A stretch of DNA of 59,486 nucleotides from Candidatus Poseidoniaceae archaeon (GCA_964218365.1 CAXPMI010000002.1:1-59486), one strand, 5' to 3'. Shown: positions 13,770-30,400, numbered from the stretch's first letter. Made by a program: numbers and translations. The notes: generated from the letters alone by a model not told the origin.

Positions 13770-14462
13770 TTAGAGATTATTTCTCACCGTTTTACACCCA
13801 ACGGAGAAGTCTGGATTCTCCTTCATTGCCTGGGCGGTTTTGTCCAATAAATCGTCTTCAGCTGTTCGTGGATTTTCTCCAGCCTTTCTCCACGAGACTG
13901 AGACAAATAGATCGTCGTGGACAAAAGATTCGACCTGAAAATTATCCAAAATAATGTCTCTGGGATTAAGGTGCATTCCGAGTTTTTCGGCTTTTTGAAC
14001 CGCCTCTTTTGCGGTCCAGATTTCAATTGCCATTTTTGAATTTTCAATTAGAAAATTTAACTCAGCATCCTTAGCCATCATGTCAAATGCGTTGGTCTGA
14101 ATCTGCCGATTTTTTTTCTCAGCATCAATCCCAATCCAATACCCAGGCTCTACCAATGCACATACCGCCCAATCCTCACAATGGCCTATACTGATCCCGG
14201 GTAAAGGCTCATTTTTCCAAACACCGCTTATCCAAGAGAGGTATGGTGCGCGATGCTCGGTACGAAGAACTTCTAGAGAGTCCAGAGGTAAGCCCCATTC
14301 TTGAACACACTTCTCTAGTAGAAGGCGCCCCGAATTGTGGTCATTTAGGCGCTTTTGTGTCGCACGAGGGATATCTTCAGAGAAAATACTGCCACAATCT
14401 TGAATTGGCATCCTTGCAAGCAACATCTTGGGACCTTGCAAAGGACCCATGATTTCCATCAT
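13770..14462 (-). CDS. 4'-phosphopantetheinyl transferase (Sfp-like)
   Basis: SIGH, IGIDAE and WTAKEAVQKA motifs of the PPTase superfamily; immediately follows the PKS stop. Confidence 0.88.
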   Translation of the reverse strand: MMEIMGPLQGPKMLLARMPIQDCGSIFSEDIPRATQKRLNDHNSGRLLLEKCVQEWGLPLDSLEVLRTEHRAPYLSWISGVWKNEPLPGISIGHCEDWAVCALVEPGYWIGIDAEKKNRQIQTNAFDMMAKDAELNFLIENSKMAIEIWTAKEAVQKAEKLGMHLNPRDIILDNFQVESFVHDDLFVSVSWRKAGENPRTAEDDLLDKTAQAMKENPDFSVGCKTVRNNL

Positions 14463-14463
14463 T

Positions 14464-17400
14464 TCACCTCGAGAGAGTGAATCTTTGGTCTTCCGGGACT
14501 TCGCCCATTGCCTTGAGTCTCAATCCCTTGAGAGACAATACAGGCGCATCATCATCGCCAACAACGACGACGTCGTGAACGGTCACACCTGCATCTTCTG
14601 TTGCAACCTTAACAGAGCGCACTCTGAGTTTTTCTTCTGCTTCTGGAACTCTTAGCATAGTGGACCACTCAATCCCAATTGGTAGGCTCGAGAACCCTTC
14701 GCTTTCCATTGCCGCTAATCCGGCATTCTGGAAACCGGCTTCAATCAGCATTGGTAATGCCTCGAGCAGTACCTCTTCTCCATCACTTTCTAGGGCGAAT
14801 TGATCTGTTGAGGGGAGTTGATGCCTCATCAGTGCAATTCCATCCACTCCGCCTTCGATGCCACGTAGTACACCGCCGTGTGACTGGAATCTAGGGCCAT
14901 GGAAGTATCTCAGGTAAATGAAACTGGAATGGTGCTGAAGTTCCCCGTCTGGAGGTGTGCCAATTTCTGGGAGTGACTTCACTTCACTCTCTAGGAATGG
15001 TGTCATGTCTTCACTACTTGCAACCAGCCTTACCTTAGCTTCGTGGTGCAGCCTTGGCTCGCCAAATACCTCGCCCTTTGAATTAACCAAGTCTGATACG
15101 AGTCTACACTTTACCCAACTCATATCACCCTCACTAGAAACTAATTCTGCCTCGACACGAACAGTCATTGCACCTTTCATTATCTTGATAGGCAAACCGA
15201 ATGTAACCTCTTCAAATCCAGCCAAATGATTGCCAGGGAGTAATAGCAGTGAATTTTCTGCAAACATCTCCATAGCCATCACACCTGGGTGATAGGGTAC
15301 TCCATCGATGGCATGGTCGCTCAAGAATGGGTGGTCTCTCACAGACAAGGTGCATTGTGAGGTTAGTGACTTACCTTCATCTAGTGAAATTAATTTGTCA
15401 ATCAGAGGGAACCTTCGTGGGTCTGCTATAGCTGCTGCCATTTCTGCTGGAAGTTTCAATGGTGCATCTCTGAATGAGTCATAGCGGTCCATCAAACCAA
15501 GGGAGCCGCAGCCGAGGACTCTCCTCTTTCCTCCTGCGAGTGCCTCTCCGACAAATATCTCGACTCCATCCTCAACAGCCAATGTTTCAATTCCTGCTGA
15601 TTCGAATACCGCCTCAATTGAACCGCGTGTTGCCATTCCGACATCTCTCCAACCAGTCCAACCGATTGCAACTGCTCTGCATTCTGAGTTAGCGGTTAAG
15701 CGTGCCATCTCTGCATCGAGAATTGAGTTCGCTGCTGCATAATCGGTCTGTCCACCGTTTCCGAATCTTCCTGCAACGCTAGTGAAAGCACAGGCGAATC
15801 TCAGTGAGTCTGTTACACAAGATGTTAATGCCTTCCAACCATCAATCTTGACTCTGACAATCAAATCGAATGTACTCCAAGTCTTATCCGCTACAAGTTT
15901 AGATTCCTCTAATCCTGCACCGTGTACGATTCCAGTTACGGTTCTTTCACCAACTGCAGCGCTAATTGCACCCGAGTCTGTGACATTTGCCGAATGGTAC
16001 TCCGCGATGTTTCCTGTCGATTCTATTTCGCTTATTGTGCGGTAGATGTCCATGCTTCTTGTCAACTTCATCCACGCATTGTTCCATTCGACCATTGTGA
16101 CCTTGCCACTCTCTGATTCTGCAATCAACGACTCTCTAAGTGCCATCTTCCTCGAATTAAGTTGCTCTTCTGACCAGTCGAGCCATTGTGAAGTTTCTTC
16201 GACAAGTCCGCTGCGCCCGAGTAATAGGAAGGTTGCTCCTGCATTTTTGCTCGCATTTGCTACACCGATGATCGATGCAGCGGTTACTCCAGAACCTCCA
16301 CCACTGACCAACCACACATCGTCTGATTGAAGCGATTTGACCTCATCCACTAGGTCTTCTGCAAAGCAGACTAGTGTCCACCTTCGAAGGTCTCTATCGA
16401 TTCCGATTTCAACCTCGCCACCTGCATTGAGCATATCATTCTCGATAATCTCTGCAGCGGCATCCGCATCAATTATCAATTCAGGATGCAGATCGAGTGC
16501 TCGACATCGGAGGTTTTCTCTCTCAAATGCATATGATTTCGTTACACCGCTAGCACCACAAGCAAGGGAATTGAATCTCTCACCTCTGTTTCCGTGCCTG
16601 CCATCTAGGGCAGAAACGCTACCAACGATTCCCGAGGATAGGACACCTAATTGGGTATCAAGTCCCTTCAGTAGACCAAACCAAGATTGCGCTGCTAAGT
16701 TCACTTGGTTCGATGCTCCTTCGCTTTCCCATGAACTGCCTGTCAAGGAAAGTGGGGCAAGGTGAATGATTCCGCCTACGCCTGAAATTCTCGAACAGAT
16801 TTCTGCGATTTGCTCTTCGCTGCCTGGGTCTGCTCTGTATGTATGTCCGGACAACTCTTCTTGCTCAGTTACCGATTTCGCACCGAATTCAAATCCGACC
16901 TTAGCAACTGATAGGCCCTTAGTTGAGAGTCTAGTTGCTAATGCATCTGCAACTCCCCAACTATCCTGAGTTAGAACGATTGTTCCACCAATTGGAAGAC
17001 CTTCTGCAACAGCAGGGCACGGTTCAACTTCAACTTGCCATCTGCGTGTCTTGGAAGCTGTCGTCATTACACTTGGTTCTGGTTTATTTGTTTGAGCAGA
17101 AACTTGCGGCTGTGGAGAGGTAGAAGCAGTCACTGGGGTCGGTGGCTTGGCAGGCTCGCTTCCACCTTTCATCTTGACAATGTATGATACGAAGTGGTTC
17201 AATGTAGGATGGTCCGATAACACGAAATCTTCGTCTACTGGCAGGGAGAATATTTCTCTAACGTCCCCCATAATCTCCGCTTGCTTTACCGTATCAATTC
17301 CCAACTCACCCTCAAGGTCTTGGTCCATTTCAATGAAGTCTTCAGGATATCCTGTATGCTTAACGACCACGCCGATTAGTTTGGGCTCAATATCGCCTGT

Positions 17401-20400
17401 ATCACCCGTATTTACTGCACTAACATGGATTTGATCTGCTTGGGCCTGAGGGGCAGCTACGGGTTCTGGCTCTGCAGGTGTTGGTACAACCGTTGGCGCA
17501 GTTGAGGTGGCTGGAACACCTCCCGTCATTTTCACAATGTAATCTACGAAGTGATTGAGAGTTGGATGTTCGGATAGAACGAAATCCTCGTCTACAGGTA
17601 ATGAGAATATTTCTCTGACATCACCCATGATTTCCGCTTGCTTGACTGTATCAATTCCCAATTCTCCTTCTAGGTCTTGGTCCATCTCAATGAAATCTTC
17701 AGGGTATCCGGTGTGCTTGACAACTACCGCAATCAACTTTGGTTGAATTTCAGATTCATCGCCGGAGGCTTGTGCTGGTGGTGTGACAGCCTCTGCAACA
17801 GGTGTTTGCACAGGTGCTTCAACTGGAGGCGTCGGCTCCACAGCCTCTAGAGGCGCTGCAACAGCAACAGGTGCTTCTCCGCCCTGCATTTTGTGAATAT
17901 ATGCAATCATGTGATTCAATGTTGGATAATCCGAGAGAATGAAATCCTCGTCTACAGGCAGTCCAAACTTAGCACGGATATCGGCCATGATTTCAGCCTG
18001 TTTGACTGTATCAATTCCCAACTCTCCTTCCAAATCTTGGTCTAATTCAACGAAGTCTGCAGGATATCCAGTATGGTTTACAACCACTTCAATCACAATT
18101 TGAGTCGTATCTCCTGTTGGCACGGATGCCGGCGCAGGGGTTGGAATCGGAGCAGGGCTCGGCTCCTCTGCGACTGGAACAGGATCTTGCTTGACTAGGA
18201 TAGGCGCTGCGACAACCGGGACTGAAGAGACAGATTCCGCAGACGGAGTTGCGTATTCAGCTCCTTGAATACCACCATGTAGGTTATTTTCACCGTCCAC
18301 ATATGCAACTAGTTTATTCTTCAAAACACGTAACTCTAGATTAGAAGTGCCGGCTTGAGATTGACTCCAAGCCATCAATTTCGCCTTGTCAATTCTATCT
18401 CCTGTATACTCGTATTTCCTTACTAGTGAAAGCCCGATTTGGCTACCGAAACCTGCTGCGAATCGCATTCCATACTTCAGATTTGGATAATCTCCACCTT
18501 TGGAAAGATTGAGATTTCCTAGTTCTGGGTCAACCTCTTTGTGGTTAGCAATAGGTGGAATTCTGCCAGTCAATAATCCATAGAACATCGATGCATCTTC
18601 AATTCCAACGCCCATAGGGTGACCAGTGAAACCTTTGGTATTTGCAATAACTAATGAGTCTGCACTTTGACCAAATGTCTCACGCAATGCTTTGACCTCT
18701 GCTTGTGCAGAGCCCCCTCTTGCAGGGGTGTATGTTTCATGGGAGAAGAATACGGTGCTTGGTGCCATTTGGTGCCTATCAAGACCCCATTGCCCTTCCA
18801 TTTCTGTGATGAATTCATTGACGGTTTGGGCGACGTGGTCCACATCTAAACGAGTGCCGTGGAATGCTGAATTCGAAATTCTGCTACCGAGAATTTCCGC
18901 CATCGGTTGAACACCTCTAGCTTCAGCCTCAGACTTTCTTTCAACTACGAATGCTGCTGCACCCATACCAAGAATCAATCCATTTCTTCTCTTGTCGAAA
19001 GGCAAAGCGGTTTCTTCAACCACATTGTGAGTCGATGCGGCACCACTAGCGGCAAATCCTGCACCGATCCATTCCCACAAATCATCGCCAGTAACGTCGT
19101 CTGCAGAGATGATTACCACTCTGTCACATCTGTCATTTGATAGCCAATCTTCTGCAACGCCAAATGCCGCAGTTGCTGAGGCACATGCGAGATTGATTGT
19201 GGTATTCGGCCCTCTAATACCCACATGCTGTGCGAATTGTGAATGGCCCATGTTTAGAATTTGGAAAAGATATCTTCTGTCGAATCTACCCTCTCCATCG
19301 TCGCCGTTCATCTTTGCATGCTTCGCTGCCATCTGGTGGCCAGCGAAACAAGATGCGAATACGATACCGGTTCTGTCTCTGTATGCTGCAGGCATTTGCC
19401 AAGAACGGATTAGTCGCAATCCACCCTTACCAACTTGCTCAACAGGTGTAAGAGGAATTCCTGCATCCTTGAGTGCAATCAATCCAGACGCACAAGCTAA
19501 CTGGGTTGTGATATCCCATGCTGCGGCAATCTTTGCTTCGATTCCAAACTCCTCTTCTGGGTCAAATGCAGACATGACGCCCGCCAATTGTGGAATGTCG
19601 CCGAATTCCTTTGCAGCCTCCATTCCTACGCTGCCATCTCTACCTTTGATTAATCGAACTAGGTTCTTGTCTAGCAGTCTCTGTTTGTATTCATTACTTA
19701 CCTCAGAAATGCAAGTCTCTCCTCGAACTAATTTCTCAAAGTTACCTTCATCGAATACTCTTTCTCCACCAGGTAGACCAAGCGAAATACCAGTAACCAC
19801 GTATGGGTCGACTGCTCTGTCATCCAATTTGGCGACTCGTGCTTTACTCTGGGTAGTTGGAGCGGAGGTAATCCACCTTGTGATGTCTCCTGGTGTTTTT
19901 GCTACTGTAATGTCCCAATCAGGGTCAGTACTACATCGAGCATGAACTGTTGTGATTACATTTTGAATCTGGTCATCACTCATTCCTAGAACCGCACGCA
20001 TGTCGACATTGCCTTGACAGAACTTGGCAGGATAACCCGTATGAGCAGCAATCAGTTCTCCCACTAGCGCCTTCTTTGCTGCGTCTGGGTCAACATAAGT
20101 ATCACTAGATTTTACAACGGTTTGAGTTACAACTTCGCCACCCTTTGATGGAAGTGGCTTACTTCTCTCTCTGAGCGGTGTTGTAGGTTTGATGGAACCT
20201 CTTTGAGCTTCGATTGGTCCAGCACGGAATGCTTCGGTTAGATGCGGGCTATCGCGGCCGGGCCAATTTGGTGGGCGACCGGCTAATGCTAGTGTTCCTA
20301 GTGCGGATAGGAAGGTTGCGATTCCTCCTGCCTTCGGATGATTTGTCATAACAGGAATCGCTTGTTTTCCTTCCAAAATTTGTGAGGCGAATACCGTTAG

Positions 20401-23154
20401 AGCCCTCTTTGGACCGACTTCCAAAAAGATCCTAGCTCCTGCGTCATACATCGAATTGATTTGTGATGTCCATTCTACGCTAGATGCCATCTGGGGTGCG
20501 AGTTTTGACAGAACAGCAGTCTTGGAGTCGCCACCGTCATCCATCGGATACCAACCTCCGTCGACGTTACTGGTGATAGGAATCTTTGGCCAATTGATTT
20601 CAAGACCTTCGAGGAATCTTCGAAGTGGTTCGTTTGCAGGAGCCACGATTCTTGAGTGGAAAGCGTGACTAGTTGCTAGTGCAACGGTTTGAAACCCTTC
20701 TGCCTCAAACCTTGACATCGCTGCTTTGACAGGCTCTGTTTCACCTGCAATCACTGTCATCTTTGGAGAGTTCTTGTTCGCTGCAATGACATATCCATCT
20801 ATTTCTGCGATGATTTCTGCAATTCTCTCGTAAGGAGCAGTAACACTAGCCATCAATCCCTTGTCGTCAATCTCAACGCTTCCCATTTCCGTTCCACGTG
20901 CAGCGGCTGCTCTTAGAGCGCCGTCCATGTCTAAGATCCCTGCACTCATCAGAGCAGCATATTCTCCAAGGCTGTGTCCTGCAACCATGTCTGGTTGGTG
21001 ACCATGGGCATTGAGTGCTGCCTCAATAGCGAGGTCTGCGGTTAGCATTGCGGGTTGAGTATATTCTGTTTGCTTGAGTTTATGTTCGGCTTCTTTTTTC
21101 TCCCCATCTGTGAGGTTCTCACGAAGTACGAATGAGGAAAGCGTTTCTCCATCTAGAACGTCGACCATGGTCACGTCTGCCTTTTCCCAAACTTCTCCAA
21201 CTCCAGTATATCTTCCGGACAAGTCGTTCGTCATGCCGACATATTGGCTGCCTTGGCCAGGGTACATGTGAGCGACCTTTGCTTGGGATGGCATTGCAGG
21301 CTGGTCACTGATGAGAATACCTTGGCTCATCAAGAAGCCCCATTTCCCTGCATCATCAATCGCTTTGAGAGCTAGGTCTTTTCGTTTGTTGAATTCTGCC
21401 CAAGATGTTGCACTTATCGCCATTCTTACTGAATCGCTCACTTCGTAAGACCAGTGTTCTGGCAATGTGAAAGAGAGGCGAATTCCCTTTGGGTCATCGT
21501 CAAAATTAGAACCGGTGATCGAAATTGCAGACAACTTAGATTTGACTGCATCAACTGAGTTTCCTGACAAGAGTAGTAATCCGCCCTCTATCGCCTTAAG
21601 TTCGTCATGTGTCATCGATGGCTTAGAAGAACTGGATGTTGAGATGCCAGCATATGCTTCCCATCTACCGCTCCACTCCTCAACTATGTCTGCGTGATAA
21701 TCCTGAACATATTCTTCGAGAGTTACGTGGAAATTAGTTCCACCAAATCCAAATGCGGATATTCCTGCTCTTCTTGGGTTTGATTCTGGCTTTGCCCAAT
21801 CTAGAGCTTTTGTTGGCACGAAAAATGGAATTTGGTTCCATTCAACTGTTGGATTAGGAGTTACGAAGCCTGCGCTTGGCGGTATTGTTGCGTGGTAAAC
21901 AGCGTTACAGGCTTTCATTATACCTGCAATTCCTGCGGCTGCTTTCAAGTGCCCAATTTGGCTCTTCACTGAACCAACTGCGATGTGGTCGCCACCGTCT
22001 AGTCCCTTCCAAAGCAGGGAGAGAGTAGACAATTCGGTAGCATCTCCAACTTTGGTTGAAGTGCCATGCGCTTCAACCAGTTCTACGGTTGATGGGTCAT
22101 AGCCAGCCTGTGCATATGCTCTACTAACCGCTTGAACCTGACCTCTCTGACTAGGCGCAGTAATTCCCTTCCCTCTACCATCAGATGAACCCCCTACTCC
22201 TCTGATTACCGCTTTGATATCGTCGCCATCATCAATCGCATCCGATAAGCGCTTTAGCAGTAGAACTCCAGCTCCTTCACCCATAACGAAGCCATTTGCC
22301 CTAGCATCGAAAGGCGTAGAGTGTGATGGTGAAAGCGCTCCGATTGCGCTAAACTTCGCATAGGTTGCAGCTTCCATACAGCGGTCGGTTGCTCCAGCAA
22401 GCATCGTATCGACCTGTCTAGTTTGCAATAATCGACAGGCATCGAGTAAAGCAGCCATTGATGATGCGCATGCTGCATCTGTAGAGTAGTTTGGACCTTG
22501 AAGGTCGAGAAGATTTGCAACTCTTCCACTTACGACGTTAGCCAATTCTCCTGGCATTGTGTCTTCATCGATGCGAGGTGTGCCCTCGCACATTTTCTCA
22601 ACCATTGCATCGGCTTGTTCGGGAGTTGCTCCGTTGTCGATTGCGATTTGACGCATTTCTGCACTGTAGACTCGAATGTTGGATTCCGAACGGTTTTCCC
22701 CACCAAGGGCATTAGCGAATATTACGCCTGTACGCGCTCTGTCTAGCGTTTTTCCTCCTTCACCATAACCCGCGTTGTCGATTGCATCTGCTGAAACCGT
22801 TACAGCCCAAAGTTGGCAGGGGTCGATTTGAGGAAGAGTTCCCGGAGGCTGCCTCCATCTTCGCCAATCGAACTCATATCCTTCAACAAAGCCTCCGATT
22901 TTCGAGTATGTCTTGCCTTCAGTCACATTGCCCGGAGCGCCATTCTCCCAGTAAATGTCTGGGTTCCAGCGGTCTTTTGATACCTCTTTAATCGAGACAT
23001 GCGCATCGATTATGTTCTGCCAAAATTCGTCAATAGAGGTTGCATCGGGCATTAATGCAGCCATACCGATAACTGCAATTGGTTCGAAAGGAGCTTGATT
23101 CAGACCATCTACTTGCTTTCCGTCCGCTGTAGTAACCGACATGAAATCACTCAC
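14464..23154 (-). CDS. Type I FAS/PKS (PfaA/HglE-like): KS-AT-(degenerate ACP)-KS-ACP-ACP-ACP-KR-DH
   Basis: KS1 DAAC229ASS/HGTST/IGHLK; AT PGQGSQ/GHS728LGE/HAFH; KS2 NLAC1324ASA/SHET/TGHPMG; three LGIDTVKQAEI ACP repeats; KR SGGGSG/HGAG/DY2472AAAN; DH HPFLSDH2614AIDGVPYHPG. Confidence 0.93.
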   Translation of the reverse strand: MSDFMSVTTADGKQVDGLNQAPFEPIAVIGMAALMPDATSIDEFWQNIIDAHVSIKEVSKDRWNPDIYWENGAPGNVTEGKTYSKIGGFVEGYEFDWRRWRQPPGTLPQIDPCQLWAVTVSADAIDNAGYGEGGKTLDRARTGVIFANALGGENRSESNIRVYSAEMRQIAIDNGATPEQADAMVEKMCEGTPRIDEDTMPGELANVVSGRVANLLDLQGPNYSTDAACASSMAALLDACRLLQTRQVDTMLAGATDRCMEAATYAKFSAIGALSPSHSTPFDARANGFVMGEGAGVLLLKRLSDAIDDGDDIKAVIRGVGGSSDGRGKGITAPSQRGQVQAVSRAYAQAGYDPSTVELVEAHGTSTKVGDATELSTLSLLWKGLDGGDHIAVGSVKSQIGHLKAAAGIAGIMKACNAVYHATIPPSAGFVTPNPTVEWNQIPFFVPTKALDWAKPESNPRRAGISAFGFGGTNFHVTLEEYVQDYHADIVEEWSGRWEAYAGISTSSSSKPSMTHDELKAIEGGLLLLSGNSVDAVKSKLSAISITGSNFDDDPKGIRLSFTLPEHWSYEVSDSVRMAISATSWAEFNKRKDLALKAIDDAGKWGFLMSQGILISDQPAMPSQAKVAHMYPGQGSQYVGMTNDLSGRYTGVGEVWEKADVTMVDVLDGETLSSFVLRENLTDGEKKEAEHKLKQTEYTQPAMLTADLAIEAALNAHGHQPDMVAGHSLGEYAALMSAGILDMDGALRAAAARGTEMGSVEIDDKGLMASVTAPYERIAEIIAEIDGYVIAANKNSPKMTVIAGETEPVKAAMSRFEAEGFQTVALATSHAFHSRIVAPANEPLRRFLEGLEINWPKIPITSNVDGGWYPMDDGGDSKTAVLSKLAPQMASSVEWTSQINSMYDAGARIFLEVGPKRALTVFASQILEGKQAIPVMTNHPKAGGIATFLSALGTLALAGRPPNWPGRDSPHLTEAFRAGPIEAQRGSIKPTTPLRERSKPLPSKGGEVVTQTVVKSSDTYVDPDAAKKALVGELIAAHTGYPAKFCQGNVDMRAVLGMSDDQIQNVITTVHARCSTDPDWDITVAKTPGDITRWITSAPTTQSKARVAKLDDRAVDPYVVTGISLGLPGGERVFDEGNFEKLVRGETCISEVSNEYKQRLLDKNLVRLIKGRDGSVGMEAAKEFGDIPQLAGVMSAFDPEEEFGIEAKIAAAWDITTQLACASGLIALKDAGIPLTPVEQVGKGGLRLIRSWQMPAAYRDRTGIVFASCFAGHQMAAKHAKMNGDDGEGRFDRRYLFQILNMGHSQFAQHVGIRGPNTTINLACASATAAFGVAEDWLSNDRCDRVVIISADDVTGDDLWEWIGAGFAASGAASTHNVVEETALPFDKRRNGLILGMGAAAFVVERKSEAEARGVQPMAEILGSRISNSAFHGTRLDVDHVAQTVNEFITEMEGQWGLDRHQMAPSTVFFSHETYTPARGGSAQAEVKALRETFGQSADSLVIANTKGFTGHPMGVGIEDASMFYGLLTGRIPPIANHKEVDPELGNLNLSKGGDYPNLKYGMRFAAGFGSQIGLSLVRKYEYTGDRIDKAKLMAWSQSQAGTSNLELRVLKNKLVAYVDGENNLHGGIQGAEYATPSAESVSSVPVVAAPILVKQDPVPVAEEPSPAPIPTPAPASVPTGDTTQIVIEVVVNHTGYPADFVELDQDLEGELGIDTVKQAEIMADIRAKFGLPVDEDFILSDYPTLNHMIAYIHKMQGGEAPVAVAAPLEAVEPTPPVEAPVQTPVAEAVTPPAQASGDESEIQPKLIAVVVKHTGYPEDFIEMDQDLEGELGIDTVKQAEIMGDVREIFSLPVDEDFVLSEHPTLNHFVDYIVKMTGGVPATSTAPTVVPTPAEPEPVAAPQAQADQIHVSAVNTGDTGDIEPKLIGVVVKHTGYPEDFIEMDQDLEGELGIDTVKQAEIMGDVREIFSLPVDEDFVLSDHPTLNHFVSYIVKMKGGSEPAKPPTPVTASTSPQPQVSAQTNKPEPSVMTTASKTRRWQVEVEPCPAVAEGLPIGGTIVLTQDSWGVADALATRLSTKGLSVAKVGFEFGAKSVTEQEELSGHTYRADPGSEEQIAEICSRISGVGGIIHLAPLSLTGSSWESEGASNQVNLAAQSWFGLLKGLDTQLGVLSSGIVGSVSALDGRHGNRGERFNSLACGASGVTKSYAFERENLRCRALDLHPELIIDADAAAEIIENDMLNAGGEVEIGIDRDLRRWTLVCFAEDLVDEVKSLQSDDVWLVSGGGSGVTAASIIGVANASKNAGATFLLLGRSGLVEETSQWLDWSEEQLNSRKMALRESLIAESESGKVTMVEWNNAWMKLTRSMDIYRTISEIESTGNIAEYHSANVTDSGAISAAVGERTVTGIVHGAGLEESKLVADKTWSTFDLIVRVKIDGWKALTSCVTDSLRFACAFTSVAGRFGNGGQTDYAAANSILDAEMARLTANSECRAVAIGWTGWRDVGMATRGSIEAVFESAGIETLAVEDGVEIFVGEALAGGKRRVLGCGSLGLMDRYDSFRDAPLKLPAEMAAAIADPRRFPLIDKLISLDEGKSLTSQCTLSVRDHPFLSDHAIDGVPYHPGVMAMEMFAENSLLLLPGNHLAGFEEVTFGLPIKIMKGAMTVRVEAELVSSEGDMSWVKCRLVSDLVNSKGEVFGEPRLHHEAKVRLVASSEDMTPFLESEVKSLPEIGTPPDGELQHHSSFIYLRYFHGPRFQSHGGVLRGIEGGVDGIALMRHQLPSTDQFALESDGEEVLLEALPMLIEAGFQNAGLAAMESEGFSSLPIGIEWSTMLRVPEAEEKLRVRSVKVATEDAGVTVHDVVVVGDDDAPVLSLKGLRLKAMGEVPEDQRFTLSR
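17170..18110 (-). repeat. Three tandem ACP-domain repeats (~360-nt period) with Pro/Ala-rich linkers
   Basis: VVV(N/K)HTGYP.DF.E.DQDLEGELGIDTVKQAEIM repeated three times. Confidence 0.9.
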
Positions 23155-23950
23155 CCATTATGCTTGAGGGCACCATCGTAATCGAATACCCTGCATCAAC
23201 ATGGATACACTGTCCAGTGACACCTGAGGAGAGAGGACTTGCAAGCCAAGTCGTACACCCTGCTACGTCTGATTGTGTTACATTTCGGCGAAGTGGAGAA
23301 TTGGCTGCGACGTGATCCAAGATATTGTCAAAGCCTGGAATTCCGCTTGCTGCGATTGTCCTTATTGGGCCGCTAGAAATCGAATTTACACGGTGTCCCT
23401 CTGGCCCAAGGTGGCAGGCTAATTCTCGTGTCCAGCATTCAAGGGCCGCTTTTGCCATGCTCATGATTCCATAAGACGGAACATGCCTAGTCGAGGCAGC
23501 ATAGGTTAGTGTGACTGTCGAGGAACCAGGGTTGAGGTATGGTAATGCGAACTTCAGACAGCGCTGGAGTGAGTTCGCAGAAATTGTATATGCCGTGTTG
23601 ATGCTTTCATCATCGACAAACAAGATTGGCCTATCGAAACATTCTCTCGGGGCGAATCCAATTGCGTGAACCATTATGTCTGCTTTCAGACCAGGGTTGT
23701 CTTTACTGAATGCATCGAAAAATTCCTTCGTGTCTGCATCGGATGCAACGTCTAGGGGGTAGAACCCCGCGATTGCAGGAAGTTTGTCTTTGAGTTGGAA
23801 AACTCTTGACATGAATCTCTTTTGATAACCGAGGTACAACGTCACCCCTGCCTCTGCAAGACTCTTACAAATCGCCCATGCGATTGAGTCTTCACTTGCC
23901 ACTCCGAAAACAAATGCAACTTTACCTTGTAAACCAAGCATCTTTGGCAC
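23147..23950 (-). CDS. fabI: Enoyl-ACP reductase FabI (SDR)
   Basis: GVASEDSIAWAI, HAIGFAP, YGIMSMAK catalytic motif, ISSGPIRTIAASGIPGF; GTG start; overlaps the PKS start by 8 nt. Confidence 0.9.
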   Translation of the reverse strand: MPKMLGLQGKVAFVFGVASEDSIAWAICKSLAEAGVTLYLGYQKRFMSRVFQLKDKLPAIAGFYPLDVASDADTKEFFDAFSKDNPGLKADIMVHAIGFAPRECFDRPILFVDDESINTAYTISANSLQRCLKFALPYLNPGSSTVTLTYAASTRHVPSYGIMSMAKAALECWTRELACHLGPEGHRVNSISSGPIRTIAASGIPGFDNILDHVAANSPLRRNVTQSDVAGCTTWLASPLSSGVTGQCIHVDAGYSITMVPSSIMGE

Positions 23951-24059: not shown

Positions 24060-25223
24060 CTAAAGATCCTCAAAATCAAAATCATCATCCAAATCATCTA
24101 AGTCATCGAAATCTAAGTCGTCATCGAACTCTTCTTCGATTTGCTCCTCTGAGATTCCTGCCTTCTTCATAGCCTTGCGGCCTGCTTTGTTTGCCTTCCT
24201 TTCAGCCTTAGCGACCCTCTTTGCTTCCTTAGCTGCAATTTTCTGTTTTCCGGCCTTCTTTGTTAGTTTTGAAATCAGGACTAGAAGGACGATTAATGCG
24301 ATTAATCCGCCACCGGCTATTCCGACCAATTGTAAATCATCATTTGAAACAGATTCAATACCAAATGCGCCACCTGTTGAGGCACTTCCCGAGACTTGTG
24401 CATCAACTGTTACATCGATGTAAGGGGCTGAATCATCTGTTAACGAGTAAGCACGTAAATTAATTTCAAAATTGAAACTCTCATCTGGGAGTTGATCGAT
24501 GCCAAACAGCATAAATCCTGCATTTGAAGTAGAACCAGGAGTTACAACCTCTCTGTAAAAATCAACTCCAAAGTAGAATGGAGTTACACTATAAAATGAG
24601 TGCGTGATGCCTAAACTACTCAATTCCTCTAAGTTCATAATTTCTACAACAATGTCGTCATCGACGTTACCATCGTTGAATAAAGTCAGTTGAACTTGAT
24701 AGAATCCCTCATCATCATCAATTTTCTCGTCAATTATGACTGTGCTCTTATCTTGCACTTGGAACGTCATCCTAGAATATGGCATTGATTTTACTTGGCC
24801 GCTAGCTTCTGAACTGGAACCAAGTTGACCGATTGGGATTAGTATTGGCTCTTGGCCCACACTTTCAATTGTAGCTGTGATATTGTAATCTTCAGTTGCT
24901 ACTTCAGACCTAGGTGAAGCAGAGAATGTTGCGATAAAACTTGCATCTTCTCCTGCTGCCAACTCAAAGGATGATTCTGACAAAATTAGAGAAAAGCCAT
25001 TTCCATCAACACTTCCATCGACGTTGATTTTCTGATTTAATGAGCCAGTGTTAGAAACCACGCAGTTTACATTCACTGGAGCATTTTGCTCTGGATGCAC
25101 GTTTATTTCAATTGTTTGTTGGTCACAATCGATGTCCACACCAATGGGCGAAACTTGTGCTTGAGAATGAATAGGTGTAAACAAACAAGTTAGAAGGAGT
25201 GAGATGAGAATGACTCTCTTCAT
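24060..25223 (-). CDS. Membrane-anchored surface protein (Ig-like; resembles MGII choice-of-anchor T family)
   Basis: Signal peptide (start MKRVIL), beta-rich domains with N.G...D motifs, C-terminal TM, basic then very acidic tail. Confidence 0.7.
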   Translation of the reverse strand: MKRVILISLLLTCLFTPIHSQAQVSPIGVDIDCDQQTIEINVHPEQNAPVNVNCVVSNTGSLNQKINVDGSVDGNGFSLILSESSFELAAGEDASFIATFSASPRSEVATEDYNITATIESVGQEPILIPIGQLGSSSEASGQVKSMPYSRMTFQVQDKSTVIIDEKIDDDEGFYQVQLTLFNDGNVDDDIVVEIMNLEELSSLGITHSFYSVTPFYFGVDFYREVVTPGSTSNAGFMLFGIDQLPDESFNFEINLRAYSLTDDSAPYIDVTVDAQVSGSASTGGAFGIESVSNDDLQLVGIAGGGLIALIVLLVLISKLTKKAGKQKIAAKEAKRVAKAERKANKAGRKAMKKAGISEEQIEEEFDDDLDFDDLDDLDDDFDFEDL

Positions 25224-25269
25224 TGTTTCACCACTACACCCGAGATGAATCAAGGTCATGAAGTCTTGG

Positions 25270-26112
25270 TTAAATCGCACCGTAGATTCGCTCAGGCAAG
25301 TCAACGTGCGTGTTGTACAGAACCTCTTCGTCTAAACCTGCTTCAAGGAGTTGCCTAGTTCTCTTGGGTACGGTTTTCGGCCCTAGAACTGCACCAGGCC
25401 TCCTTGGGTCATCCATGTAGTCGGTTTCAAGCATGAAACCATGAGATGAAGACTCAAAGGTACTCATCAATTCCTCGATTGAACCACTACCCGCTAGAAC
25501 GCTAGGAGTTAAGCCGTGAGTGTATGATTCATCAACTCGTGGTGGCGCATAGTGCCTGACCAATTTTTCTCTAGCCAAACCAGCTCTGTCAGCCATTTGT
25601 GCTAACTCGCCATAGGTAAGGTCAGATTCCCCTTCAACGTGAAGTTGTAGTGGAATGTTTTCCCTTGCTGCTAACTCCATGGTTTCTTGCAGCAATACGT
25701 TTGAGCGATTCCAAATTTCATCAGTTACTGGCCAGTGAGGCCTTCCGACTTCCCCAATACCGTGAGCAAGGCCCTCGTGGACATAATGCAATGCAGTTTC
25801 TATGCTATCCCAATAATTCTCTTCCGCCCTTTCTCCTAGTGAATCAAATTGATGAGCAAATGCAGCAGGATGAGGCCCTAAGATGACTCTAACCCCTAGT
25901 CCTAAATCTCTAACTTCTTGTGCCATTGCAATCGTGTCAGCGTAAGTTTCTGAGTGACCTTCTCTCGTCACAGGAGGAGAGGCGAAATCAGGACAATGAA
26001 CCAATACTAGGTCGGTTCCACCAACTCTCTTGAAGTCCCTAGCCGCATCAAGAAAACGACCATTTCTATTTAGATGAAAATGGTCGTCAAGGATTGGCCC
26101 TTTCCAATCCAT
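25270..26112 (-). CDS. TatD-related archaeal metal-dependent hydrolase
   Basis: DDHFH, GPHP, GIGEVGRPH, LQLH and LETDYMDD motifs. Confidence 0.85.
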   Translation of the reverse strand: MDWKGPILDDHFHLNRNGRFLDAARDFKRVGGTDLVLVHCPDFASPPVTREGHSETYADTIAMAQEVRDLGLGVRVILGPHPAAFAHQFDSLGERAEENYWDSIETALHYVHEGLAHGIGEVGRPHWPVTDEIWNRSNVLLQETMELAARENIPLQLHVEGESDLTYGELAQMADRAGLAREKLVRHYAPPRVDESYTHGLTPSVLAGSGSIEELMSTFESSSHGFMLETDYMDDPRRPGAVLGPKTVPKRTRQLLEAGLDEEVLYNTHVDLPERIYGAI

Positions 26113-26116
26113 GCCA

Positions 26117-26656
26117 TCACACCTTGAACGATTTCTTGTCCGCGAACTTAGATTTCCAATGTACTGCAGACATTGCTACCATGTTCGGGTGTCTAGCATT
26201 TAGAGCAACGGTTCTTCCAGTAGGCCAAATCAATAACTCCAAATCGTGTCTCGTGTCATTTAACCTCAAGCAGCCAAGTCTCTCATCCATAGAGGAAGTA
26301 CCACTTCCTAGATTCATTCTGACATTTTCTATTTGAATAGGCTCTCCGAAGTCGAATGATGCCACAATAGGACCGAGTTCGGTTACAAGTCCCGAATCAT
26401 CTCTACCCATTCTAAGGAGCATTTCTTTGGCAGCAGCACGTGCAGCCTCGATTCGATGAGTTCCATGAACAACGATTCTCCCCTCGGAATCGATAATCAG
26501 TGTTGCGCGTGGCCGATCTAGCATCTTAATGATGACATCACCGTTAACGACTCCACCCAGTCTTTCGACGGCTTCCTCGAGGTCTACCCTTGGTGTTGGA
26601 GTGAATCTTGCGAGCAAATTCTCTACACGAACTTCGATGTTATTTGCACCTGACAT
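26117..26656 (-). CDS. Divergent TATA-binding-protein (TBP)-fold protein
   Basis: Two TBP-like repeats (VENLLAR..DLE..PRATLIIDSEGRIVVHG; PIVASFDFG..LELLIWPTGRTV); EYEPEQFPG loops absent. Confidence 0.65.
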   Translation of the reverse strand: MSGANNIEVRVENLLARFTPTPRVDLEEAVERLGGVVNGDVIIKMLDRPRATLIIDSEGRIVVHGTHRIEAARAAAKEMLLRMGRDDSGLVTELGPIVASFDFGEPIQIENVRMNLGSGTSSMDERLGCLRLNDTRHDLELLIWPTGRTVALNARHPNMVAMSAVHWKSKFADKKSFKV

Positions 26657-26658
26657 AA

Positions 26659-27456
26659 TCACTCCTCCTCTCGATGCGATGAAGCGCCAAGCAATGAACT
26701 CTCTGCATCAGGTAACGCTTTCAGAGCGGATAGCATAGACGCTCTCCATGCCTGTTGAATCGGAACCAGTAGAACTGCATCGTCCCCGTGTTCATCTCTC
26801 AAGTCAGATAAGGCACCACGTAAACGAGAAGCAAATCTTAGGTCCTTTTGTTGATTCAACTCATCCACTGAATTTTCTCTGTTCAATGTCCACCATGTAG
26901 CTGCAAGAGCGCTCGCTGCTTGTAGGCCGTCAGGTTCTCTAGATGGTTGTTCAACTACGTGCTTACGCATACGCTTGATTCCTTTTCTCCATCGCCTTGA
27001 TGTGAAAATTATCCTTGCTAATTTTAGTGGCTTGGTCATTGCTTTGGCTTCCTTTCCTAGGAAATCTGCCCAATTTTCGTCATCCATATCTGGTTCGATG
27101 AAATACACCGGTCTGTCGTGGTTAACCGCAGCCTTGTGAAGCCTTCTTGGTTCAGGGTCAGGGAATCTTCCCACTTGTAATCCTTCGACGCCGTAGGCGA
27201 GCATTTCGAGATAAAGTCCATCCAGGCCTCCGTTGAGAATTGCGCTGTCCAAATTTATTCCGGAGTCTTCTGCCTCTGCTTTTTCTTCCTCAGCCCAAAC
27301 CTCTACTTCTTCGCTGGACCCCATAATTCCCAAACCGTGCCAATTGAGGCGTGGCCTCATTGCATTAGGCAAAACCACTGTCGGTAGGACACCGTGCAAC
27401 ACAATCGTGCCGCCATCGGGGTCCTTCCAGTGGATATCGTCCCAGTCAAGATTCAT
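26659..27456 (-). CDS. Hypothetical soluble protein
   Basis: 265-aa ORF tightly packed with its neighbours; no recognised motif. Confidence 0.7.
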   Translation of the reverse strand: MNLDWDDIHWKDPDGGTIVLHGVLPTVVLPNAMRPRLNWHGLGIMGSSEEVEVWAEEEKAEAEDSGINLDSAILNGGLDGLYLEMLAYGVEGLQVGRFPDPEPRRLHKAAVNHDRPVYFIEPDMDDENWADFLGKEAKAMTKPLKLARIIFTSRRWRKGIKRMRKHVVEQPSREPDGLQAASALAATWWTLNRENSVDELNQQKDLRFASRLRGALSDLRDEHGDDAVLLVPIQQAWRASMLSALKALPDAESSLLGASSHREEE

Positions 27457-27462
27457 AGTGAA

Positions 27463-30400
27463 TCACTGATTGTTGTTTACCCAATCTCTTAGGCTGTCGA
27501 TGTCCCATCCTTGGTCGAAGTAACCTTGGATGGTTGCTTGGTCCCATTGTGGGAATTCTGCCATTGCTGCAGCCATTGTTGGATCTACGCTTGCAGGCGG
27601 TGGACCGGCAGATGGAGGGCCTGCTCTTGGCAGGTCAACTAACGATTTATCGACCTCTTCCTCGTATTCGTATTCATACTCGTATGTACCGTCAGAGGAG
27701 CCTCTCCTAGCAAGTACAACCACAACTAACAGAAGTATCAGAATCAGAGTACTCAATCCAATAACTATCAGCATACCAGAGCCGGATAAGAAACCGCCAT
27801 CATCGGATGCTTCAGCGACGTTGAATGATTTAGAGAATTCTGAGCCGTTCCATAAAGGCATGTTTGATTCTGCATCTACGATGATGAAATACATACCACT
27901 GGTTGGGTTTCCGAATACCTCAAGATCTGTAACGAAGATATTCTCGGTTGTGCCCATTGCAATTTCACCGGTAGTGAAGGTTAACTCAGTTGTAGGGAAC
28001 CCGCCGTCCTTGACTGACTGAATCTCTAGCGTAATGTTGCCATCCTTTGTTCCATCATTCTTCAGAGTGATTTCTAATTCTGGCGTATCGCCGACTTCTG
28101 GGCTCTTTGGAGTCATTCTAACGTCTATGACCTTGAACGATGCTTCTTCGTAAACTAGCCTGTATTCAGAGTTATGAATTGGGATGCTTGAGTAAATTCC
28201 GCTAACGCCTTCAACTCCATCCAATCCGACAATTGGACCACCTGCTTCAATTTCCCATCCAGCAGAATCTCTACCTTCAATCCACAGTACGATGTCAATT
28301 CCAGTAAGTTGTGATTGAGTTGGGCTAACCGGGTCAGGCCACAAATCAACACAGTTTGCGCTTACTAGGTAATCTCCACCTTGGATCTTCAAATCGAGTG
28401 GAGCAGATAGTGGATTTATGCCGAACTTCTGACCAAATACTGGCCAAGTTTGGTTGGTGTCAGCATCGATGTAGTAAGACCACATTAGGTTGACTTCACC
28501 TGCAATCAGTGCAGCGTTCTCTTCGATTACTGCCTCTACGTCCACACAGTTTAGGGCTGAAGATGGCATTGTGTTACCAAAGACTTCCCCGTTCAATCCA
28601 GAACTTGCTTCCCATGAATCATCATCGATTTTTGGTTGGCTTGCATCGACCTTAATCTTGAACGAACCACAACCATTTGCACTGTTTCCATCACAAATTT
28701 GTGCGGTTGTGTCTGTTGCTCCATCTGGCAGGTTCACCAACCTGAATGTGTAGGTGTACTCGTTGTTGATTGGTGGAGCTGTGATGTTAATTGCAAACGC
28801 ACCTCCATCGATTGTATGTAGGGTTGGTCCATCTGTCTTGGAACCATCTGCACCACCTGCTGGATATGCGAAGTATCCCTTACTTCCATCCATCATTGCT
28901 TCTTGGCGTGTTATTTCAACCGTAAATTCACCTTCAGGCAGAACGTAAACTCCGAAGTTAATTCCGTCTACATAGGCGTACTGTCCTTCCATCAGAATTG
29001 TATCACTTGGGAAGACGAAAGCGACCTCAACATCTTGCGAATATGGGTAATCCATATCTGTGAATGAAGGAGTTATTCCGTTTCTGAAATCGAGTTGGAT
29101 TCCATCACTGTAAACCCAGCGCTGCTTGTGTCTGCCACCGCTTTCACTCATCAAAGACGGGTCTCTGTCCATATCCTTGATTCTGAGTTGTGGAATCATG
29201 GTCCCTCCTCCGATTCCAATAATGTCCCAATTCATTCTGATCGGCAAGTCTAGATAGAACTCATCTTCGAATGGATCAATCAAACGACCGCCATCCATTC
29301 TCAGGACCTGTGGTCCGTCGCTGTCGTCTCCTGCTTCGATGATTTCAATGTCTTCAGATTCAGTCCATGCTGTTTCGTTTCTTGGCGAGTAGTAAACAAC
29401 CATGTCATCGGGACCTAAGTCGATTTGGAAGTAGTTGATATCTCTCCATCCGTTTTCATCTGTCGCTTCTACAATTAGGTGGTATTGGTTACCAGCATAC
29501 ATTGTCATGTTCCAAGGTCCTTGGTAGAAAGGAGCTCCCTCGCTAGGATTGTGAAGGCGGTTTCTATCAGAATCTTCTATGAAGAAATTTCTGATGTTAG
29601 GAGTCTTTGCATCCATTGAAACGTATGTAACCAAATCGTTGTCAAATCCTGCCATTCCGCCATCGATTGGATTTCCACCGATGTCAGTTCCTTCGACATA
29701 GATACTAACCTTGCCAGGTGGAATTTGTCCCTTATTTGCGTCATCGCTGAAGGTTCCAGAGTAGTTTGCAGTTGGTAGGTTACCATCGCTGTATATTGTC
29801 AAAATTGCATACTCATCAGGGTCGGCAATTCCATCCATATCTGCATCGTGGTCATACTCGACCCAGTAGTACATGTCTAGACTTGTTGGAGGCTCTGGTA
29901 TGTCCTGAGCGAGAACTCTAACCTTCTGCTGAGCGCTTGGAAGAACCCATGTATCATCGACTAGGTTTCTCCAGTTCGACCAAATAGACTGGTCAAAGTT
30001 CGCTGCTTTCAATACAGAGATGTTGATTAGAGTAGGTGAATAAGTATCGATTGATAGATTGAAAGGTATCGCACAATCAGAATCCGAAACTATTGGTGCA
30101 GGAGGACATAGAGTATCTCCGCCTTCATATCCGTCAATCATGAAGCGGTATGTCGCTTCACCTGCTGCTGTTGAGCCAAGGTCAACATCCCAGTCAAAGT
30201 CGCCACCAATAACACCAGATTTGTTTGAAATTTCAATCCACTCTGAGACAACTGTACCGTTCACGGTTTGGACGTCCCAGCGCTGTAAAGACAAATTGTA
30301 GGCTGTTGGATCTGGGGCTACATCCAGACCTTCGAGTCTGATACTTCCCATTAGGTTGATGTTTTGGTTTGACGTTGCAGCTGTCAAATCCTGCAAATCA

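Follow-up and report, generated by a model that had tools for sequence, protein, structure and literature searches.

Threonine at the predicted phosphopantetheine attachment site of tandem acyl carrier domains in a PfaA-like synthase of a Marine Group II archaeon

We analysed a 59,486-nt stretch of DNA from Candidatus Poseidoniaceae archaeon (GCA_964218365.1 CAXPMI010000002.1:1-59486; hereafter the window) that encodes a PfaA-like ('Type R') iterative synthase of 2896 amino acids (aa; 14464..23154), in which three acyl carrier protein (ACP) domains carry threonine at the position of the usual attachment serine. The three domains are, as comparison of the family indicates, likely to be working acyl carriers whose arm hangs on this conserved Thr and is loaded by the linked Sfp-type 4'-phosphopantetheinyl transferase (PPTase). 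In the chemistry we propose, the carriers would serve an iterative PfaA-like fatty-acyl synthase of a Marine Group II (Poseidoniales) archaeon, with a phosphodiester bond linking 4'-phosphopantetheine to the oxygen in the side chain of the Thr of LG[IV]D-T-VKQAE, where helix II begins. The arm would be transferred from coenzyme A (CoA) by the PPTase encoded just downstream, through the usual Mg-dependent mechanism, for which the His, Asp/Glu and Glu/Lys motifs appear intact. We infer both that the Thr is modified and that the arm is phosphopantetheine; Thr is favoured as the acceptor because it is conserved, is exchangeable with Ser, has no alternative site beside it and is accompanied by a dedicated PPTase.

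All of the features with coordinates lie on the minus strand. The three carriers, recognised by Pfam PP-binding and by an ACP hidden Markov model (HMM), are ACP1 (residues 1681-1760; 17875..18114), ACP2 (residues 1801-1880; 17515..17754) and ACP3 (residues 1920-2000; 17155..17397); PP-binding (PF00550) matched in three stretches of the synthase, with 76.1 bits against a cut-off of 20.8. The residues in question are Thr1716 (codon ACA, 18007-18009), Thr1836 (ACA, 17647-17649) and Thr1955 (ACG, 17290-17292), and translation reproduced exactly the numbers and codons that an earlier, sequence-only reading of this DNA had given for its three LGIDTVKQ sites. The string GIDT occurs exactly three times in the 2896-aa protein, each time within LGIDTVKQAE. 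Pairwise HMMER alignment places the Thr on the Ser of LGIDS/LGVDS in the solved carriers PigH 5y08, 4hkg and 2koo. The AF2 model of ACP3 (mean predicted local distance difference test score (pLDDT) 88.1) has helices at residues 11-26, 47-61 and 77-86, with extra three-residue helical turns at about 30-32 and 71-73, and helix II opens at residue 47, the Thr, as in the helical bundle of an ACP. What is missing is the canonical Ser of the (D/H)S(L/I) acceptor motif, Thr standing in its place in all three domains, and we know of no studied carrier protein in which the attachment position is other than Ser. The earlier claim that the protein holds no GxDS-type ACP elsewhere stands in substance but not as a statement about strings: GGDS (874) and GRDS (966) do exist, the former inside the Pfam acyltransferase stretch (residues 630-942) and the latter just beyond it, both outside the PP-binding matches.

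Thr at this position is a property of the family. In 121 large homologues (the query and the 120 listed among 3945 large proteins found at E <= 0.001 with the ACP region), 523 of 523 motif matches read LG[IV]DTVKQAE, and the ACP HMM applied to the same 121 gave 525 hits with Thr and seven with another residue (six Asp, one Glu), these seven including the degenerate ACP-like segment described below. When a single domain was used in a phmmer search of 1.84 billion representatives (50% identity), 4267 proteins were returned at E <= 0.001; among the best 150, which we examined, 149 had a domain hit, and by HMM these comprised 92 all-Thr, 53 all-Ser and four mixed or incomplete proteins. The 53 all-Ser proteins are PfaA-like types that read LGIDSIKRVEI or LGIDSIKKAQL. 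Among the other four, P0163 has six Thr domains and a divergent last domain with Ala at the site, P0150 has four Thr domains and a divergent fifth domain that reads LGIDSELFNTI, one protein has Asp and one has a gap in the column.

At the level of genomes (one per species), at least 600 stretches match [DE]LG[IV]DTVKQ, and 595 were confirmed. The 79 Thr-type loci that we kept come from Poseidoniales and other Thermoplasmatota, Acidobacteria/Terriglobia, Myxococcales, Bradymonadia, Spirochaetota/Leptospiraceae, Elusimicrobia, Chloroflexia/Caldilineales, Gemmatimonadales and Actinomycetes. The sequence-only reading had mentioned similar DTVKQAE repeats in bacterial proteins and had argued against a single base-call error; both points are borne out, as the same motif recurs in independent assemblies, including 68 Thr sites in the loci of 27 related genomes. 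Tandem ACP copies number between 2 and 7 or 8, depending on which of two counts is used, with the motif unchanged, and in one protein (P0158) Thr-type domains occur together with an N-terminal NMO-type reductase. All four Thr codons are used at the distinct sites (ACG 122, ACC 65, ACT 29, ACA 27), and Ser (TCN) is one base away, which argues that the amino acid itself has been held through synonymous turnover. Thr is found at 132 of 132 distinct bacterial sites, a pattern that points to selection for Thr itself.

In natural orthologues, Thr is exchanged for Ser at exactly this position. Among the related genomes whose PP-binding loci were translated, the exceptions to Thr are G030 and G033, which read LGIDSIKQAE, and a pattern scan found the Ser form DSIKQAE (TCN codon) in 22 of 401 Poseidoniales genomes, all belonging to family f3, where it is present in three genera (g6, 8/11; g9, 2/2; g24, 12/15). 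In family f1 the Ser form was found in 0 of 199 genomes, and a reversed-pattern control gave 0. Ser-type orthologues are 50-54% identical to the window synthase, and Thr-type members of the same family 55-56%, and the two share the order FabI-synthase-PPTase. A partial orthologue of 1886 aa, P0211, has two ACPs that read LGVDSVKQAE, with Ser at the site and the Val of the Thr type kept; it resembles the Poseidoniales, differs from the DSI form of the three f3 genera and is probably a separate Thr-to-Ser change. The replacements of Thr that we saw were Ser, save for the single Ala in the divergent last domain of P0163. Counting the site together with the next residue over distinct domains gave Thr-Val 683, Ser-Ile 184, Thr-Ile 8 and Ser-Val 7, figures that are descriptive, as kin sequences are not independent.

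A tree of the ketosynthase (KS) and acyltransferase (AT) regions places the Poseidoniales in one clade (support 100), nested among Thr-type bacterial and archaeal sequences, with PfaA-type Ser proteins as the outgroup; Thr therefore appears to be ancestral there and Ser derived. The fewest site changes on this tree number three overall, two of them within Poseidoniales, the relevant forks being unresolved. In the PPTase tree the archaeal group contains a single clade (support 91) that unites its Ser-linked enzymes. Taken together with P0211, this suggests one to two Thr-to-Ser events in Poseidoniales plus that of P0211. Because Thr swaps with Ser at the exact position and the operon survives the swap, the residue behaves as an arm-bearing hydroxyl is expected to behave, and the exchange, read from these alignments, marks it as the putative attachment site.

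If the arm were instead attached elsewhere, at another Ser, in a degenerate segment or on a separate Ser-type ACP, the Thr domains would be structural. Two Ser residues come into question. The window ACPs have one in an LSD/LSE motif past helix II; the other, in 'LGMSD', belongs to a degenerate ACP-like segment (residues 1031-1088, HTGYP...LGMSDDQ; 19891..20064) that was detected with an HMM made from the three ACPs. In bacterial relatives the first of these positions is occupied by R, K, A, G or Q. Across 14 aligned diverse Thr-type domains we found no invariant Ser; the invariant residues are T26, G27, Y28, E40, L43, G44, D46, T47, V48, K49, Q50, E52 and T76. The degenerate segment has Asp at the site column and was detected in 53 of the 121 homologues (Poseidoniales-like), the bacterial members of the 121 giving no HMM hit; the Ser of its 'LGMSD' is S, N, D or T among close orthologues. 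By its sequence, therefore, the segment is not a conserved Ser-type carrier. It follows the AT and precedes the second KS, and could represent an additional carrier domain that has decayed, or serve in docking.

A search for separate carriers gave a similar picture. In the source genome (1.77 Mb, 62 contigs, 86% complete) no PP-binding match was detected outside the synthase. Among 41 related genomes, 29 have PP-binding matches, and every listed match lies inside a frame of 1017-2925 aa that corresponds to the synthase, on one contig; no stand-alone PP-binding match was found in the 41. The sequence-only reading had named a modification at another Ser, or a separate Ser-type ACP, as findings that would speak against it, and in these searches we detected neither a conserved Ser nor another carrier. 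We therefore regard attachment of the arm elsewhere as very unlikely.

The same survey bears on whether the domains could be dead pseudo-carriers, the cluster being a decaying import from bacteria. Twelve of the 41 related genomes have no PP-binding match, and archaea, to our knowledge, generally lack ACP-dependent lipid synthesis. On the other hand, the synthase open reading frame (ORF) runs for 8.7 kb in a single frame without interruption, orthologues at 46-56% identity have lost neither domains nor operon order, one and the same motif persists from phylum to phylum through synonymous codon turnover and variation in copy number, and the PPTase is retained or even fused. We find decay of this kind barely credible. 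Family f3 is patchy for the synthase, 10 of 14 f3 genomes (91-97% complete) having no PP-binding match; the cluster has been lost from, or was never present in, several f3 genera.

The PPTase itself is closely tied to the synthase. In the window, the gene for this Sfp-type enzyme of 230 aa (13770..14462; Pfam ACPS, 32.3 bits against a cut-off of 25) starts 1 bp downstream of the synthase stop, on the same strand. No other match to the ACPS family (PF01648) was detected in the 1.77-Mb source genome. The assertion that a cognate PPTase is retained is thus supported: the adjacent gene encodes an Sfp-type protein with all of the catalytic residues, and it is the sole PPTase detected in the genome. 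The linkage extends across the family, a PPTase being adjacent, nearby or fused in 65 of 68 assessable Thr-type loci. Among all 79 loci, it lies at most 300 bp downstream on the same strand in 47 and 2.0-8.4 kb downstream in 14; it is fused to the synthase in three and on the other strand in one. Of the rest, 11 end too soon to judge, and three have room and no PPTase, their synthase frames being fragmented. In the fusions (L091, L101 and L108, and also P0145 and P0054) the PPTase is C-terminal. Fused synthase-PPTase frames of 3786-3856 aa were seen in some Thermoplasmatota and Bradymonadia relatives.

A distance of 5.5-8.3 kb between synthase and PPTase was observed in L077, L082, L084-L087, L092, L100, L105, L106, L110 and L114, which suggests that further conserved genes lie between the two. 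Loci of this kind are mostly from Acidobacteria, and L110 is labelled as uncultured Actinomycetes. In the part of the 2011 catalogue of such clusters that we drew on, an acetyl-CoA carboxylase gene is mentioned between synthase and PPTase in Koribacter (PMC3098273).

By its residues the window PPTase looks, on sequence grounds, like an ordinary Sfp-type enzyme. Eight residues are invariant in 23 cluster-linked PPTases (R38, H94, G111, D113, E115, W149, E153 and K157, in window numbering), and the catalytic and Mg-binding residues H94, D113, E115, E153 and K157 align with the Sfp motifs IsH, GiDxE and WxxKE..K. A profile of the linked PPTases matches both lobes of Sfp (1qr0/4mrt, E 1.4e-17) and of human AASDHPPT (2cg5, 1.6e-17), profile positions 28-198 aligning with Sfp residues 22-185. 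The window enzyme scores 21.1 bits with 4PPT_N, below the cut-off of 27; its PF01648 match and the profile alignment over both lobes agree with a two-lobed Sfp-type enzyme. PPTases of family f1 share a conserved tail of about 35 aa (ED.LLD.T..AM....VGC.T.RNN; window 13770-13880), seen also in L037, L043, L045, L048, L053, L061 and L071; the tail is absent from f2, f3 and bacterial PPTases.

Structural modelling gave a compatible picture. A model of the PPTase with ACP, CoA and Mg scored 0.93, the best of three controls scoring 0.01, where the mark for docking is reached by 58 of 80 solved complexes and by 2 of 110 mismatched pairs. At least 98% of contacts are common to the runs, with a partner pLDDT of at least 87, and in the modelled interface ACP residues 46-48 meet PPTase residues 94-95, 115, 149 and 153, which belong to the catalytic motifs. 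Since Sfp-PCP and AcpS-ACP complexes have been solved, passing this mark may reflect likeness to them, and a docking pass of this kind does not show modification.

The identity of the conserved partner also bears on the group that Thr would carry. A different CoA-derived moiety, or an acyl chain attached directly as an oxygen ester, could in principle occupy the residue. The partner that is conserved, or fused, is however a PPTase, whose known reaction is the transfer of phosphopantetheine from CoA, and the Ser-type orthologues fit canonical chemistry. PfaA-type KS, AT, ketoreductase (KR) and dehydratase (DH) domains, as in type I fatty acid and polyketide synthases, act on thioester-bound substrates. 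That Thr bears a group other than phosphopantetheine is accordingly highly improbable.

Several observations weigh against placing the arm on Thr at all. Among the solved structures that the ACP query matched, not one carries Thr at this position. Conservation, extensive as it is, shows that Thr matters and not which group is attached to it. The source genome is incomplete, and a stand-alone carrier could have been missed in this genome alone. The motifs of the PPTase are of the ordinary Sfp type, with no sequence sign of Thr specificity. Finally, as stated in the portion of the report consulted, E. coli ACP S36T cannot be modified with 4'-phosphopantetheine and cannot replace acpP (PMC3340395), so that at least one PPTase, AcpS, rejects Thr.

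Granting that Thr is the acceptor, the enzyme could nevertheless be an unspecialised PPTase of the Sfp type, equally able to load Ser and Thr, the latter being a tolerated, lineage-fixed variant. The sequence-only reading had proposed a specialised PPTase, and here our results do not follow it: the motifs are standard, the profile matches both Sfp and its human counterpart, no residue came to light by which Thr-linked PPTases differ from Sfp, and the Ser-type Poseidoniales keep an orthologous PPTase that falls inside the archaeal PPTase clade. In P0150, moreover, four domains of the Thr type stand beside a fifth, divergent ACP-like one with Ser. We did find eight columns that split 12 Thr-linked from 9 Ser-linked archaeal PPTases (for example, the residue after the invariant Trp is T/V in one archaeal group and M/L in the other), and rejected them, as the split fails in bacterial Thr-linked PPTases and in Sfp and would reflect one or two events.

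Mere tolerance of Thr is harder to reconcile with the 132 of 132 bacterial sites that have kept it with Ser one base off, and with five bacterial hosts that have 2-4 ACPS-family genes each, AcpS-sized ones included, and still keep the cluster PPTase, which makes the linked PPTase an extra one. An HMM of the linked PPTases (trained on the linked set, so that the comparison is partly circular) scored 72 linked proteins at 83-315 bits, and seven unlinked ACPS-type ones from these hosts, plus one of ambiguous linkage, at 11.7-81.8. Whether DT-type ACPs go with one PPTase clade, a check that the earlier reading had put forward, came out divided: of three unlinked Sfp-type comparators, two are placed outside the clade of linked enzymes (support 96) and the third, long-branched, inside it, a result that is no more than suggestive. 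On balance, an unspecialised PPTase seems to us quite possible, if short of probable.

A more ambitious view is that O-phosphopantetheinyl-threonine is a real and hitherto undescribed protein modification and that Thr serves as an insulation device. Thr-type carriers would then be loaded solely by the co-inherited PPTase and would escape host AcpS, other PPTases or ACP phosphodiesterase, which would keep a lipid pathway separate from primary fatty-acid synthesis. Insulation fits the data because Thr is kept at all of the bacterial sites in hosts that also have AcpS-type genes, and because the Ser reversions of known taxon occur only in Poseidoniales archaea, without another carrier or PPTase, few as these events are. 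The paired change of Thr-Val to Ser-Ile would also fit a reshaped acceptor site. We offer the insulation view tentatively and consider it rather unlikely.

The remainder of the synthase resembles known multidomain systems. Its Pfam domain order is KS1, AT, degenerate ACP-like segment, KS2, three ACPs, KR and DH, and the best NCBIfam model is PfaA TIGR02813, with 928.4 bits, which is under the cut-off of 1010.1. KS1 spans residues 24-484 (21703..23085; Pfam ketoacyl-synt, Ketoacyl-synt_C and KAsynt_C_assoc) and the AT residues 630-942 (20329..21267; Acyl_transf_1, 123.9 bits; FabD-like TIGR00128, 197.5 bits, below its cut-off). KS2 is the second ketoacyl-synt stretch in Pfam and covers about residues 1105-1600 (18355..19842), its borders being approximate and read from the sequence. 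BLASTP aligned INLACASA of KS2 on TDAACASS of KS1, and the active-site Cys is thus kept; as KS2 corresponds to the 'CLF' of the 2011 catalogue, its Cys means that the synthase may hold two working ketosynthases. Candidate His motifs are visible by eye in KS2. The KR core lies at residues 2370-2504 (15643..16047; Pfam KR, 75.4 bits) and a dehydratase of the polyketide synthase type at residues 2583-2887 (14494..15408; Pfam PKS_DH_N and PS-DH). The impression that the catalytic domains are intact agrees with the presence of all of these in Pfam and with the retained KS2 Cys.

The gene for a FabI-type enoyl reductase (23147..23950; Pfam adh_short_C2, 227.2 bits; NCBIfam FabI models, 212 bits, below their cut-offs) overlaps the synthase start by 8 bp, and its upstream position is conserved among orthologues; it is likely to encode the trans-acting enoyl reductase of the synthase. 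Directly upstream of the FabI-synthase-PPTase unit is a 414-aa ORF (24060-25304) that matches NCBIfam 'choice-of-anchor T' with 82 bits against a cut-off of 70. Further along, a TBP-like ORF (26117-26662; PF00352, 36.9 bits) adjoins a 1942-aa ORF (27463-33291) for which no Pfam family was found at E <= 0.01.

The rules for carrier proteins in textbooks and databases, the PP-binding signature included, assume that Ser bears the arm, and the protein-modification lists that we know of hold only serine-linked phosphopantetheine. In the literature searched, which leaves most subscription journals outside it, neither phosphopantetheine on Thr nor the DTVKQAE motif was found described, nor was the presence of this cluster in Poseidoniales. 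The gene family is already catalogued; what is new is Thr as the putative acceptor across a family, the natural Thr/Ser polymorphism, and the presence of such a cluster in abundant marine archaea. If the Thr is modified, this would be a new post-translational linkage, the ACP and its PPTase might serve engineers and protein labelling as an orthogonal pair, and it would show that filters based on the 'GxDS' motif can mis-score whole synthase families as inactive. A further question touched by the cluster is whether Marine Group II archaea use a carrier-protein machine to produce fatty-acyl chains of the bacterial type.

Among known systems, the closest in layout is the Type R cluster, described (in the portion of the paper available to us) as one pfaA homologue with the order KS-MAT-CLF-ACP(3-6)-KR followed by a PPTase gene, and reported there in Acidobacteria (Koribacter, Solibacter), Elusimicrobium and Roseiflexus, with the product given as unknown (Shulse & Allen 2011, PLoS One 6:e20146, PMC3098273). 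As far as that description goes, the window shares both the domain layout (KS, AT, second KS, three ACPs and KR) and the downstream PPTase. The words 'threonine' and 'serine' have 0 occurrences in the main text of that paper, so the Thr is not noted there, and for later work on Type R hosts the literature searched gave only the 2011 paper itself. The nearest non-archaeal relatives of the window synthase are likewise found in Acidobacteria, Elusimicrobia, Chloroflexi and others, and in the KS-AT tree (built without that paper's own sequences) the window groups with Acidobacteria, Elusimicrobia and other phyla against PfaA-type outgroups, with support of 81. It differs from Type R in its archaeal host (Poseidoniales), in the FabI gene upstream, and in a second KS that keeps its Cys and so is no classical CLF.

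With PfaA of the bacterial polyunsaturated fatty acid synthases (TIGR02813), the window synthase shares the logic of KS, AT, tandem ACPs, KR and DH, the Ala/Pro-rich linkers between the ACPs and a dedicated Sfp-type PPTase, and the presence of PfaA-type domains among the best 150 hits of the window ACP indicates that the ACP sequences are related. PfaA ACPs, on the other hand, carry Ser (253 sites, spread over 53 all-Ser proteins and two more that also contain Ser sites), and in the window synthase an additional KS separates the AT from the ACPs, with no PfaB, PfaC or PfaD genes beside the synthase gene. Thr at the phosphopantetheine site is shared with E. coli ACP S36T; that protein is an engineered one, reported as not modifiable and non-functional (PMC3340395), whereas the natural Thr domains have been maintained alongside an Sfp-type PPTase of their own, which is of another class than AcpS. 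The system of Sfp from Bacillus subtilis with a peptidyl carrier protein (1qr0, 4mrt) offers the nearest enzymatic parallel: both half-domains align, the motifs are shared, and the modelled docking puts ACP helix II on the PPTase. The relation to Sfp is a remote one (67 bits, E 1.4e-17, over 171 profile positions), and the window differs from the Sfp system in that the predicted acceptor is Thr and the next residue is Val rather than Leu or Ile.

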